Position numbers and translations under genes: made by a program. DNA of 13,959 nucleotides from Escherichia coli (GTDB lineage Bacteria; Pseudomonadota; Gammaproteobacteria; Enterobacterales; Enterobacteriaceae), in the NCBI RefSeq assembly GCF_003334315.1, contig NZ_QOWR01000079.1; one strand, given 5' to 3'. Under the pieces are notes generated by a model, which had not been told where the DNA came from, ran no database searches, and was given only the letters and a program-made list of their open reading frames with translations. Every line of letters begins with the position of its first letter. Position 1 is the stretch's first letter. Positions 11,338 to 13,959 of this stretch are shown here, one piece after another.

Positions 11338-12813
11338 ATGGCTAACTACTTCAATACACTGAATCTGCGTCAGCAGCTGGCACAGCTGGGCAAATGTCGC
11401 TTTATGGGGCGCGATGAATTCGCCGATGGCGCGAGCTACCTTCAGGGTAAAAAAGTAGTCATCGTCGGCTGTGGCGCACAGGGTCTGAACCAGGGCCTGA
11501 ACATGCGTGATTCTGGTCTGGATATTTCTTACGCTCTGCGTAAAGAAGCGATTGCCGAGAAGCGCGCGTCCTGGCGTAAAGCGACCGAAAACGGTTTTAA
11601 AGTTGGTACTTACGAAGAACTGATCCCGCAGGCGGATCTGGTGGTTAACCTGACGCCGGACAAGCAGCACTCTGATGTAGTGCGCACCGTACAGCCACTG
11701 ATGAAAGACGGCGCGGCGCTGGGTTACTCGCACGGTTTCAACATCGTCGAAGTGGGCGAGCAGATCCGTAAAGATATCACCGTAGTCATGGTTGCGCCGA
11801 AATGCCCTGGCACCGAAGTGCGTGAAGAGTACAAACGTGGATTCGGCGTACCGACGCTGATTGCCGTTCACCCGGAAAACGATCCGAAAGGCGAAGGTAT
11901 GGCGATCGCTAAAGCATGGGCGGCAGCAACCGGTGGTCACCGTGCGGGCGTGCTGGAATCGTCCTTCGTTGCGGAAGTGAAATCTGACCTGATGGGTGAG
12001 CAAACCATCCTGTGCGGTATGTTGCAGGCTGGCTCGCTGCTGTGCTTCGACAAGCTGGTGGAAGAGGGCACCGATCCGGCATACGCAGAAAAACTGATTC
12101 AGTTCGGTTGGGAAACCATCACCGAAGCACTGAAACAGGGCGGCATCACCCTGATGATGGACCGTCTCTCTAACCCGGCGAAACTGCGTGCTTATGCGCT
12201 TTCTGAACAGCTGAAAGAGATCATGGCACCCCTGTTCCAGAAACATATGGACGACATCATCTCCGGCGAATTCTCTTCCGGTATGATGGCGGACTGGGCC
12301 AACGATGATAAGAAACTGCTGACCTGGCGTGAAGAGACCGGCAAAACCGCGTTTGAAACCGCGCCGCAGTATGAAGGCAAAATCGGCGAGCAGGAGTACT
12401 TCGATAAAGGCGTACTGATGATTGCGATGGTGAAAGCGGGCGTTGAACTGGCGTTCGAAACCATGGTCGATTCCGGCATCATTGAAGAGTCTGCATATTA
12501 TGAATCACTGCACGAGCTGCCGCTGATTGCCAACACCATCGCCCGTAAGCGTCTGTACGAAATGAACGTGGTTATCTCTGATACCGCTGAGTACGGTAAC
12601 TATCTGTTCTCTTACGCTTGTGTGCCGTTGCTGAAACCGTTTATGGCAGAGCTGCAACCGGGCGACCTGGGTAAAGCTATTCCGGAAGGCGCGGTAGATA
12701 ACGGGCAACTGCGTGATGTGAACGAAGCGATTCGCAGCCATGCGATTGAGCAGGTAGGTAAGAAACTGCGCGGCTATATGACAGATATGAAACGTATTGC
12801 TGTTGCGGGTTAA
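11338..12813 (+). CDS. ilvC: Ketol-acid reductoisomerase (491 aa)
   Basis: Protein [55 protein letters not shown]... with a Rossmann NADPH motif (GCGAQG). The ORF-track start at 11188 is an upstream in-frame ATG inside the regulatory region; the ATG at 11338 has the Shine-Dalgarno and gives the known length. Confidence 0.96.
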
Positions 12814-12820
12814 GTGCGCG

Positions 12821-12859
12821 CTGATGCCCTCACCCCGACCCTCTCCCACAGGGAGAGGG
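12821..12859. repeat. GC-rich palindromic intergenic element
   Basis: Perfect 9-bp inverted repeat ccctctccc-aca-gggagaggg (12839-12859) preceded by tgccctcaccccgacc. Resembles the GC-rich imperfect-palindrome intergenic repeats of E. coli (boxC-like); family assignment is tentative. Confidence 0.45.
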
Positions 12860-12870
12860 AGAAAACACTC

Positions 12871-12895
12871 AAGGCCTTCTCCTGGAGAAGGCCTT
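12871..12895. terminator. Hairpin between convergent ilvC and ppiC (probable shared terminator)
   Basis: 12-nt inverted repeat aaggccttctcc / ggagaaggcctt. On the minus strand it is followed by a modest T-run (gagtgtttt). It lies 5 nt from the ppiC stop. Confidence 0.5.
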
Positions 12896-12899
12896 GCTA

Positions 12900-13205
<306 letters not shown>

Positions 13206-13278
13206 TCAGGCGGCGATTTTAGCATGATCCGCAGATGCTAACGTAATTGTCAGTCAGGGAGTGGCTGGTACATATATG

Positions 13279-13303
13279 GCAAAAGCCCGGAAAATCCGGG
13301 CTT
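13279..13303 (-). terminator. Intrinsic terminator downstream of the yifN-like gene (minus strand)
   Basis: Hairpin aagcccgg-aaaat-ccgggctt. Read on the minus strand, the stem is followed by TTTT (plus-strand aaaa at 13281-13284). Located about 80 nt downstream of the yifN-like stop. Confidence 0.5.
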
Positions 13304-13379: not shown

Positions 13380-13828
13380 TCAATTTATGAGCGATATGGC
13401 ATTGATTGACTTGATGACCGCCCTCTGTATGTCTGCAACCAACTCATGTGGCAAACATTGATTAAGATACCCTCTGTAAGTCCTTGCTCTGTTTAATCTG
13501 TTTCGACTGACTTGTTGTACCAGGTCGGCTTTGGCCCAACGAATCTGCTGATCAAAGAATTGCAGGTCATTGATAACATTACTGGCTATTTCAACATGCA
13601 TTCCACGTTTTAACTTGTCTGGTCGCGAGTGGTTGATAATGGAACGACGATGCATGCGTTGCCATTAATTTTTCCGTTGAGCACGACAACTAACCTGTTT
13701 TTTATCATTTCAGGAGGAATGCGGCCATCGTAATACGTCGTGCTGAACGGTCCATTTTGGCTAACAGGATAGTTACCAAAGTTGCATTCCAGTATTTCAC
13801 CAACCTTAGGGCTGAAATTAATCGCCAC
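13380..13828 (-). pseudogene. yifN: PemK/MazF-like toxin gene disrupted by a frameshift (yifN-like)
   Basis: Two overlapping minus-strand ORFs in different frames (13610-13909 and 13380-13655) together show a MazF/PemK-like order of motifs: GEILECNFG...RLVVVLNGK...ACIVVPLSTT, then after the frame change KLKRGMHVEIA...IRWAKADLVQQVS...ADIQRAVIKSINAI. The likely start is GTG at 13826-13828, preceded by an AAGGAGAGG Shine-Dalgarno (plus-strand cctctcctt at 13835-13843). The span 13380-13828 is 449 nt, not a multiple of 3, consistent with a 1-nt indel near 13610-13630. Confidence 0.7.
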
Positions 13829-13959
13829 GAGTAAACCTCTCCTTAGTAAACTCTGAAAAAGTAATAACACAACGTTACGACCTGGATTGGCCCCTATATT
13901 TCCATACACTTTTTATCACTTAACCCATTACTGGTTCGCCGCCGCAGATATTCCCGTGG

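Follow-up and report, generated by a model that had tools for sequence, protein, structure and literature searches.

The locus described here lies between two convergent genes, ilvC and ppiC, in a 13,959-nt stretch of Escherichia coli DNA (contig NZ_QOWR01000079.1 of assembly GCF_003334315.1) that is referred to below as the window. The ilvC gene is identical to its K-12 annotation (NC_000913.3, 3,957,970-3,959,445), and the 86-bp spacer that separates the two genes (12814-12899) matches that of E. coli K-12 MG1655 base for base, window coordinates being obtained by subtracting 3,946,632 from the K-12 coordinates. The initial annotation had placed two inverted repeats in this spacer, and a repeat search recovered both of them at the same site. 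The genes and the two hairpins are as follows.

11338-12813, plus strand: ilvC coding sequence (ketol-acid reductoisomerase), with the stop codon TAA at 12811-12813, from the open reading frame and its translation
12900-13181 including the stop codon, minus strand: ppiC coding sequence, 93 aa (peptidyl-prolyl isomerase C of the parvulin type), from the open reading frame and the K-12 annotation
12839-12859, either strand: palindrome 1, the Watson-Crick hairpin of a BoxC element, 9 bp with a 3-nt loop, -16.8 kcal/mol when folded in isolation
12870-12896, both strands: palindrome 2 or hairpin 2, 12 bp with a 3-nt loop, -19.6 kcal/mol when folded in isolation; both transcripts end here

The folding energy of the 106-nt region was -48.4 kcal/mol on the plus strand and -50.3 kcal/mol on the minus strand (z = -3.9 and -3.8, respectively), and none of 200 shuffles folded as well. 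A 41-aa open reading frame that spans the spacer (12797-12922) was judged spurious and disregarded.

Palindrome 1 consists of the arms CCCTCTCCC (12839-12847) and GGGAGAGGG (12851-12859), which are 9 nt long, 100% complementary and separated by a gap of 3 nt. Over 200 shuffled versions of the window, the expected number of occurrences of this pattern is 0.00, even at 3 mismatches, and no further copy was found in the window, either at up to 3 mismatches or by a BoxC regular expression. Read on the minus strand, the palindrome is embedded in the arrangement GTTTTCT-CCCTCTCCC-TGT-GGGAGAGGG-TCG-GGGTGAGGG-CATCAGCGCGCAC, which directly adjoins the ilvC stop codon and displays the three-block architecture of BoxC, namely a C-block, a complementary G-block and a mirror-repeat G-block with short loops between them (minus strand, 12859-12827).

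12814-12866, minus strand (the G-rich strand): complete BoxC (PIT/TMECO/HPGQ) unit of type B, 53 nt, comprising the published core and the shared flanks
12827-12835, minus strand: third BoxC block GGGTGAGGG, a mirror repeat of GGGAGAGGG, from the sequence, with the architecture according to Holder 2015

Palindrome 1 shares its repeat unit with conserved flanks at 12814-12825 and 12860-12866, and the type B flanks GTTTTCT ... CATCAGCGCGCAC recur at five other copies (three E. coli loci and Pseudocitrobacter). Both the third block and these conserved flanks had been overlooked in the initial annotation. The core CCCTCTCCCTGTGGGAGAGGGTCGGGGTGAGGGC (positions 12859-12826 of the window's minus strand) is identical at 34 of 34 nt to TMECO no. 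20, a type B motif located at MG1655 3,959,491-3,959,458 in antisense orientation (Holder 2015, PMC4666352). Kaplan 2016 (PMC5100583), in which the element goes under the name of HPGQ/HPG2 motif, includes the same copy as HPGQ no. 46, at a distance of 13 nt from ilvC and 52 nt from ppiC, and according to Holder 2015 the TMECO motifs correspond to the BoxC repeat of the 1990s and to the PIT (potential intrastrand triplex) elements of Hoyne and Maher. Judged from the base sequence, the third block could serve as the candidate third strand of the intrastrand triplex examined in vitro for this family in Holder 2015, as it would form nine allowed purine-motif triads (G.G-C, T.A-T, A.A-T); together with the other G-runs of BoxC it has also been described as a G-quadruplex motif in Kaplan 2016.

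Palindrome 1 is therefore a BoxC element on account of its identity in sequence, its architecture and flanks, its dispersal and its place between genes. REP or ERIC identity of the spacer repeats was ruled out on sequence, and the REP consensus palindrome (of the GCCGGATG...CATCCGGC type) is absent from 12814-12899. Rfam searched at the gathering threshold over the whole window placed no family in the spacer, and a permissive scan of 12500-13300 returned only sub-threshold chance matches (StyR-3, SmY and Antizyme_FSE). The notion that both palindromes arose by chance, or that they are single-copy terminators of this locus outside any repeat family, is almost certainly wrong. Nothing beyond their position at gene ends speaks for it, and for palindrome 1 it is refuted by the zero shuffle expectation, by thousands of matches at other loci and by membership of a published family; palindrome 2 is indeed single-copy, yet RNA ends have been mapped at it and it is conserved.

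The dispersal of the element was quantified by blastn with a 56-nt query over palindrome 1 against 5,426 complete E. coli genomes. BoxC-core matches were found at 29,466 places in 4,502 of the 5,426 genomes, with a median of 7 and a maximum of 14 per genome. The suspicion that palindrome 1 belongs to a dispersed family of GC-rich intergenic repeats was thus borne out: the search for further copies returned many, and this particular copy appears in two published catalogues. In MG1655, 23 TMECO motifs are listed in Table 1 of Holder 2015, and in an independent survey BoxC is a described 56-bp E. coli family of 32 copies, 22 of which were recovered. Near-identical 53-nt units with the same flanks occur in the hrpB-mrcB gap, on a plasmid, in Pseudocitrobacter, in Enterobacter and in Enterobacteriaceae RIT691, and another BoxC copy is situated between a glycosyltransferase gene and a lysine-N-methylase gene. 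A match to GGGAGAGGG in a nanopore paper proved to be a T7 primer and is irrelevant.

Hairpin 2 is a different kind of element. Its arms, CAAGGCCTTCTCC (12870-12882) and GGAGAAGGCCTTG (12884-12896), are 13 nt long and 100% complementary with a gap of 1 nt, so that the inverted repeat described earlier is one pair longer than the 12 nt given to it; the RNA fold has 12 bp, 7 of which are G-C pairs in a G+C-rich stem. It was detected in 5392 of the 5426 E. coli genomes, with or without BoxC, and was rejected as a repeat on the grounds that it is single-copy; the two places scored per genome are most simply a single site, which a palindromic query would hit on either strand. Homologues were found in Enterobacter asburiae, in Enterobacteriaceae RIT691 and in Siccibacter colletis, and across four genera 10 of the 12 stem pairs are invariant and the other two carry compensatory changes, with a variable loop and variable flanks. 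In a covariation test on 6 sequences the observed score was reached by 38 of 500 shuffles, a result that supports the conservation of hairpin 2 and is weak as evidence of covariation.

Most related genera have a canonical bidirectional terminator (A-tract/hairpin/T-tract) at the position of hairpin 2, and in the Siccibacter homologue complete A5 and T5 tracts accompany the stem. A lenient consensus terminator scan also accepts the hairpin of E. coli as terminator-like, whichever way it is read. Past the hairpin, no U run on the plus strand (CUAUUAGUUG) exceeds 2, and on the minus strand (AGUGUUUUCU) a run of four U begins at position +5. This run, which is supplied by the BoxC flank as GUUUUCU, is the sole U-run on the ppiC strand, and it is missing from the empty allele (AACUCUGAAUCGC) described below. 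The weak T-run noticed earlier on the minus strand does exist (GTTTTCT, 12866-12860), but it is part of the conserved BoxC flank and not a feature of hairpin 2. Taken together, hairpin 2 behaves like a degenerate bidirectional terminator or a protective 3' stem-loop.

The spacer exists in two main forms in E. coli. The filled allele was counted with a 91-nt query that spans the junction, and the empty allele with a matching query from the short form, over the same 5426 complete genomes. The BoxC-filled spacer was found in 2944 of them (~54%), and a 45-bp spacer without BoxC in 2259 (~42%), O157:H7 among them. In the empty allele, ATTCAGAGT replaces 50 nt (CGCTGATG...GAGAAAACAC) after a common GTGCG (or TAGCG). 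No target-site duplication or clean insertion footprint could be defined in the filled-versus-empty alignments, and a clean insertion was rejected as the difference between the two forms, which differ by replacement. A rare rearranged allele of the spacer also exists.

Among seven sampled alleles, the presence of BoxC is accompanied by T as the loop base of hairpin 2 and by G at 12906, its absence by C and A, and the SNPs farther from BoxC are shuffled. The linkage of BoxC to its nearest SNPs combined with the shuffling of distant ones suggests, in this small sample of 7 alleles, two old haplotypes that would have been spread by recombination. In other genera, the arrangement of BoxC and hairpin 2 is also present in Enterobacter asburiae and in Enterobacteriaceae RIT691, and the same spacer contains an inverted BoxC pair in Pseudocitrobacter, REP/BIME copies in E. 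albertii and Citrobacter, the REP consensus also in Pluralibacter, and ERIC-like elements in several genera. The occurrence of BoxC, REP/BIME and ERIC-like repeats across genera suggests that the spacer is a tolerant landing site for small repeats, and BoxC would sit in it as passenger DNA where the two genes end.

It could be argued instead that BoxC acts at the DNA level: its three blocks would fold into an intrastrand triplex or a G-quadruplex, replication would stall there or recombination be favoured, and the element would in this way destabilise the locus or regulate its neighbours. Holder 2015 (PMC4666352) describes a stable intrastrand triplex formed in vitro by the TMECO motif, and reports that the sequence around TMECO loci varies more than that around controls; Kaplan 2016 (PMC5100583) describes circular dichroism evidence for a switch between G-quadruplex and hairpin. 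These in vitro reports concern other BoxC copies. The spacer is also polymorphic in E. coli, is very heterogeneous among genera and has its rare rearranged allele. However, according to Holder 2015 a stable triplex found no support in DMS footprinting in vivo, and no functional link to the flanking genes was found. Furthermore, the linkage of BoxC to its nearest SNPs in the 7 alleles fits two old haplotypes and not recurrent instability, and genera that lack BoxC are equally variable through REP or ERIC insertions, as if the site itself were insertion-tolerant. A DNA-level effect is accordingly considered improbable at this locus, and the passenger reading is retained below.

The ends of the two transcripts were taken from the curated, thresholded Term-seq tables of Adams 2021 (PMC7815308, Supplementary file 1), the coordinate convention of which (50 nt upstream, the end, 10 nt downstream) was verified on sgrS. 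All transcript evidence used here comes from this one published study, and neither ilvC nor ppiC is mentioned in the TERMITe supplements. Three ends map to the spacer.

12899 (K-12 3,959,531), plus strand: 3' end of ilvC-sense RNA (...GGCCUUGCUA), M63 glucose at OD 0.4, 5,802 reads, 3 nt past hairpin 2
12867 (K-12 3,959,499), minus strand: 3' end of ppiC, classed as 'primary ppiC' (...GGCCUUGAGU), M63 glucose at OD 0.4, 23,172 reads, 3 nt past hairpin 2
12835 (K-12 3,959,467), minus strand: 3' end of read-through RNA from the ppiC strand (...GGGAGAGGGUCGG), LB at OD 0.4, 28,044 reads, 4 nt past the BoxC hairpin

The published ends thus coincide with the hairpins. In M63 the ilvC and ppiC RNAs overlap by 33 nt centred on hairpin 2, and the ends at 12899 and 12867 both abut this hairpin, which indicates that it serves both genes. 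The proposal that it is the likely ppiC terminator is supported by the primary ppiC end, and the way in which ilvC ends, which had not seemed obvious, is answered by the plus-strand end on its other side. On the minus strand, the listed end lies past the BoxC hairpin in LB and past hairpin 2 in M63, in lists that are thresholded, so that an end unlisted in one condition is not an absent end.

Rho-dependent regions were derived in LB from data with and without bicyclomycin (Adams 2021, PMC7815308, Supplementary file 2). On the plus strand, such a region peaks at 3,959,826, antisense to ppiC and 295 nt downstream, with a score of 2.8. On the minus strand, the peak is at 3,959,177, antisense to ilvC and 290-320 nt downstream, with a score of 3.98, and the downstream/upstream coverage changes from 39/147 to 189/179 with bicyclomycin. 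Rho regions on both strands imply substantial read-through of the two hairpins, in LB at least, which makes the earlier doubt about an intrinsic terminator of the classical kind reasonable.

In the favoured explanation, hairpin 2 is the shared stem-loop at which the stable ends of both convergent mRNAs form. With its poor U-tracts it is leaky, and Rho halts the read-through polymerase inside the opposite gene, after which the read-through RNA is probably trimmed back to the nearest stable hairpin. Release at hairpin 2 itself could occur by weak intrinsic termination or by collision-assisted bidirectional termination. We expect that release at hairpin 2 and exonuclease trimming after Rho both contribute, in shares that are themselves inferred. 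Hairpin 2 may release little polymerase by itself, since the ends lie 3 nt from the stem and not 7-9 nt into a U-tract, and since minus-strand read-through is near-complete with bicyclomycin.

Taken to its limit, this argument leads to a different interpretation, in which the ends at hairpin 2 do not reflect termination at all: polymerase reads through, Rho stops it in the opposite gene, the RNA is trimmed, and the hairpin only protects. The downstream Rho regions on both strands, the near-complete minus-strand read-through with bicyclomycin, the weak U-tracts and the short distance of the ends from the stem are all in keeping with it, as is the general pattern reported by Dar and Sorek 2018, in which the typical 3' end of a Rho-dependent transcript lies directly after a stable stem-loop that has no U-tract, owing to protection from exonucleases. 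The spacer resembles that pattern in its stable hairpins without a good U-tract, the adjacent steady-state ends and the Rho regions downstream.

Conversely, the consensus scan regards hairpin 2 as terminator-like in both directions, and complete A and T tracts occur at this place in homologues from other genera. The Rho scores are also modest and were obtained in LB, a medium in which little ilvC expression is expected, the gene being induced by acetolactate through IlvY. In addition, hairpin-dependent bidirectional terminators that do not need Rho have been reported for E. coli convergent gene pairs (Ju 2019, as described by Wang et al., bioRxiv 10.1101/2022.10.23.513370). Hairpin 2 is similar to these terminators in its position between convergent genes, in the ends that flank both of its sides and in the 33-nt RNA overlap, but it differs in the degenerate A/T tracts of the E. 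coli version and in the substantial Rho-dependent read-through. Protection without any termination is thus possible rather than probable, and a mixture of leaky release and trimming at hairpin 2 is the preferred explanation.

The BoxC element may also have a part at the RNA level. It is transcribed within the ilvC 3' UTR and within the ppiC read-through RNA, and its hairpin of 9 G+C-rich base pairs probably blocks 3'-to-5' exonucleases. Such a barrier would explain the minus-strand end that is observed in LB 4 nt past the stem. The end at 12835 is most likely a trimmed, protected end and not a termination site, since it has no U-tract, since PIT/BoxC showed no terminator activity in tests, and since a Rho region lies ~290 nt downstream. 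As trimming ends within the third G-run, the structure that remains would be a hairpin and neither a triplex nor a quadruplex. Two other BoxC copies likewise have Term-seq ends 4 nt beyond the hairpin, at 3,781,065 (plus strand, primary end of lldD) and at 847,200 (minus strand). Among the curated 3'-end sequences GGGAGAGGG occurs only 4 times, and three BoxC-associated ends were read (one of them at a degenerate copy) as against 23 K-12 copies, few of which thus have a listed end.

Strong ends of this kind could alternatively mean that the BoxC hairpin is a genuine second terminator for ppiC transcripts that escape hairpin 2. The 28,044 reads in LB at a position 4 nt past the hairpin, together with the similar ends at the two other copies, would agree with this idea, which nevertheless appears unlikely: the sequence after the hairpin (UCGGGGUGAGGGCAUC) lacks a U-tract, the Rho-dependent region lies further downstream on the same strand, and earlier tests, as related by Holder 2015 (PMC4666352), found PIT/BoxC to have neither promoter nor terminator activity and no effect on RNA polymerase. 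It follows from this inactivity that any role of BoxC at the RNA level would have to be post-transcriptional.

A more far-reaching possibility, which we put forward tentatively and hold to be somewhat doubtful, is that ppiC owes to BoxC a second 3' end, used according to the conditions, and that convergent ilvC transcription picks between the two ends. Strong transcription of ilvC is expected in minimal medium, whereas in rich medium the gene is expected to be quiet. If this idea is true, ppiC RNA would end at hairpin 2 (12867) in minimal medium, where ilvC is active, and in rich medium ppiC transcription would read through into antisense ilvC, be stopped by Rho and be trimmed to 12835. BoxC would then be a REP-like stabiliser of 3' ends that is present at this site in about half of the strains, and its GTTTTCT flank would provide the only U-run of the ppiC terminator. 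Such a choice fits the switch of ends between LB and M63 and the ends at the two other BoxC copies, as they appear in the thresholded lists of one study.

REP/BIME elements are known to act as mRNA 3'-end stabilisers through a hairpin that blocks 3' exonucleases, and REP has a transposase partner, RAYT. By analogy, BoxC is likewise short, dispersed, intergenic and palindromic, is transcribed in 3' UTRs, and would have a hairpin that can block exonucleases; its sequence, however, is unrelated. To our knowledge, no mobilising enzyme of BoxC has been described, and we know of no demonstrated cellular function in ~30 years.

To conclude, the spacer very probably combines two unrelated elements, a BoxC passenger repeat and an older, constant hairpin 2 that sets the ends of both mRNAs. 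The BoxC copy, its dispersal and the mRNA 3' ends are all found in the literature or in public tables, and the finding is in this sense real, ordinary and already known. The spacer copy shows no sequence difference from BoxC in the literature (Holder 2015, PMC4666352; Kaplan 2016, PMC5100583), and the ~53-nt extent with conserved flanks and the Term-seq ends at +4 are additions to the accounts given in the excerpts of these two papers. The RNA 3' ends at the BoxC hairpins of several loci point to a possible role as an RNA stabiliser that could be tested cheaply. The natural filled and empty alleles between ilvC and ppiC offer a ready-made isogenic comparison of whether BoxC affects termination, read-through or antisense transcription.

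Small repeats in the ilvC-ppiC spacer vary among Enterobacterales (spacers compared within L008-L071, sequences from other genomes). The spacers of E. albertii, Citrobacter and Pluralibacter hold REP/BIME copies, whereas those of Escherichia sp. ESNIH1, Phytobacter and Mixta contain ERIC-like elements. The dispersed repeat BoxC is also found at this site outside E. coli, namely in Pseudocitrobacter, E. asburiae and RIT691, and a distance of about 930 bp separates ilvC from ppiC in Cedecea and Enterobacter sp. Ag1. In Enterobacter asburiae, the TGA of the BoxC flank is apparently the TGA stop codon of ilvC (…GGGTTGA/TGCCCTCACCCC, L022 about 1557-1565), and the repeat appears to abut or overlap the end of the coding sequence. 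Further arrangements occur in the following comparison sequences:

L091 219-308: rare third ilvC-ppiC spacer allele, 90 bp, E. coli Z1323PEC0014
L004 1501-1632 (plasmid pMTY18781-3) and L006 601-730: inverted BoxC pair of about 130 bp, made up of one type B and one type A unit

In the Z1323PEC0014 allele, two copies of hairpin 2, the second palindrome of the spacer, flank the ppiC 3' end copied in inverted orientation (junctions …CCTTGCTGT/ACCGTAACTAACAG/CAAGG…), and this duplication creates a long palindrome. The inverted BoxC pair, whose outer ends contain GCGCGC, sits between glycosyltransferase and lysine-N-methylase genes, once on a plasmid and once on a chromosome. In complete E. coli genomes, blastn places BoxC matches on plasmids at 50 places; Holder 2015 (PMC4666352) found TMECO/BoxC not to be associated with plasmids.

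Elsewhere in the window, the following features are present:

69-396, start of the window: 5S rRNA and two tRNA genes
3617-3906, upstream of the ilv biosynthetic genes: Rfam Rev39_5p_UTR match (scan of the whole window, gathering threshold)
13277-13301, minus strand: canonical intrinsic terminator, GCCCGG-ATTTT-CCGGGC-TTTT (sequence and Term-seq end)
about 13380-13830, minus strand: yifN, upstream of ppiC (annotation; also L003 2140-2589 and L001 2513-2961)

The first is consistent with the end of rrnC, and the second is probably the ilvL leader region. The intrinsic terminator lies 96 nt from the ppiC start, on its upstream side. A strong Term-seq 3' end maps to this terminator at K-12 3,959,909 (window 13277) and is covered by 39,000-63,000 reads in LB and M63 and classed as 'orphan / upstream ORF' (Adams 2021, PMC7815308). 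While this terminator may alternatively serve as a ppiC 5'-UTR attenuator, transcripts coming from the yifN side probably end there. The annotation of yifN itself differs by strain, being an intact PemK/MazF-family toxin in 95-3192 and a pseudogene in K-12.

On the ppiC strand, the sole U-run 3' of hairpin 2 is GUUUUCU, which is part of the conserved BoxC flank (window 12860-12866), and the corresponding place in BoxC-less strains reads AACUCUGAAUCGC (L002 415-431). Because the U-run is supplied by the BoxC flank and is replaced in its absence, these sequences suggest that the efficiency of ppiC termination may differ between BoxC and BoxC-less alleles.
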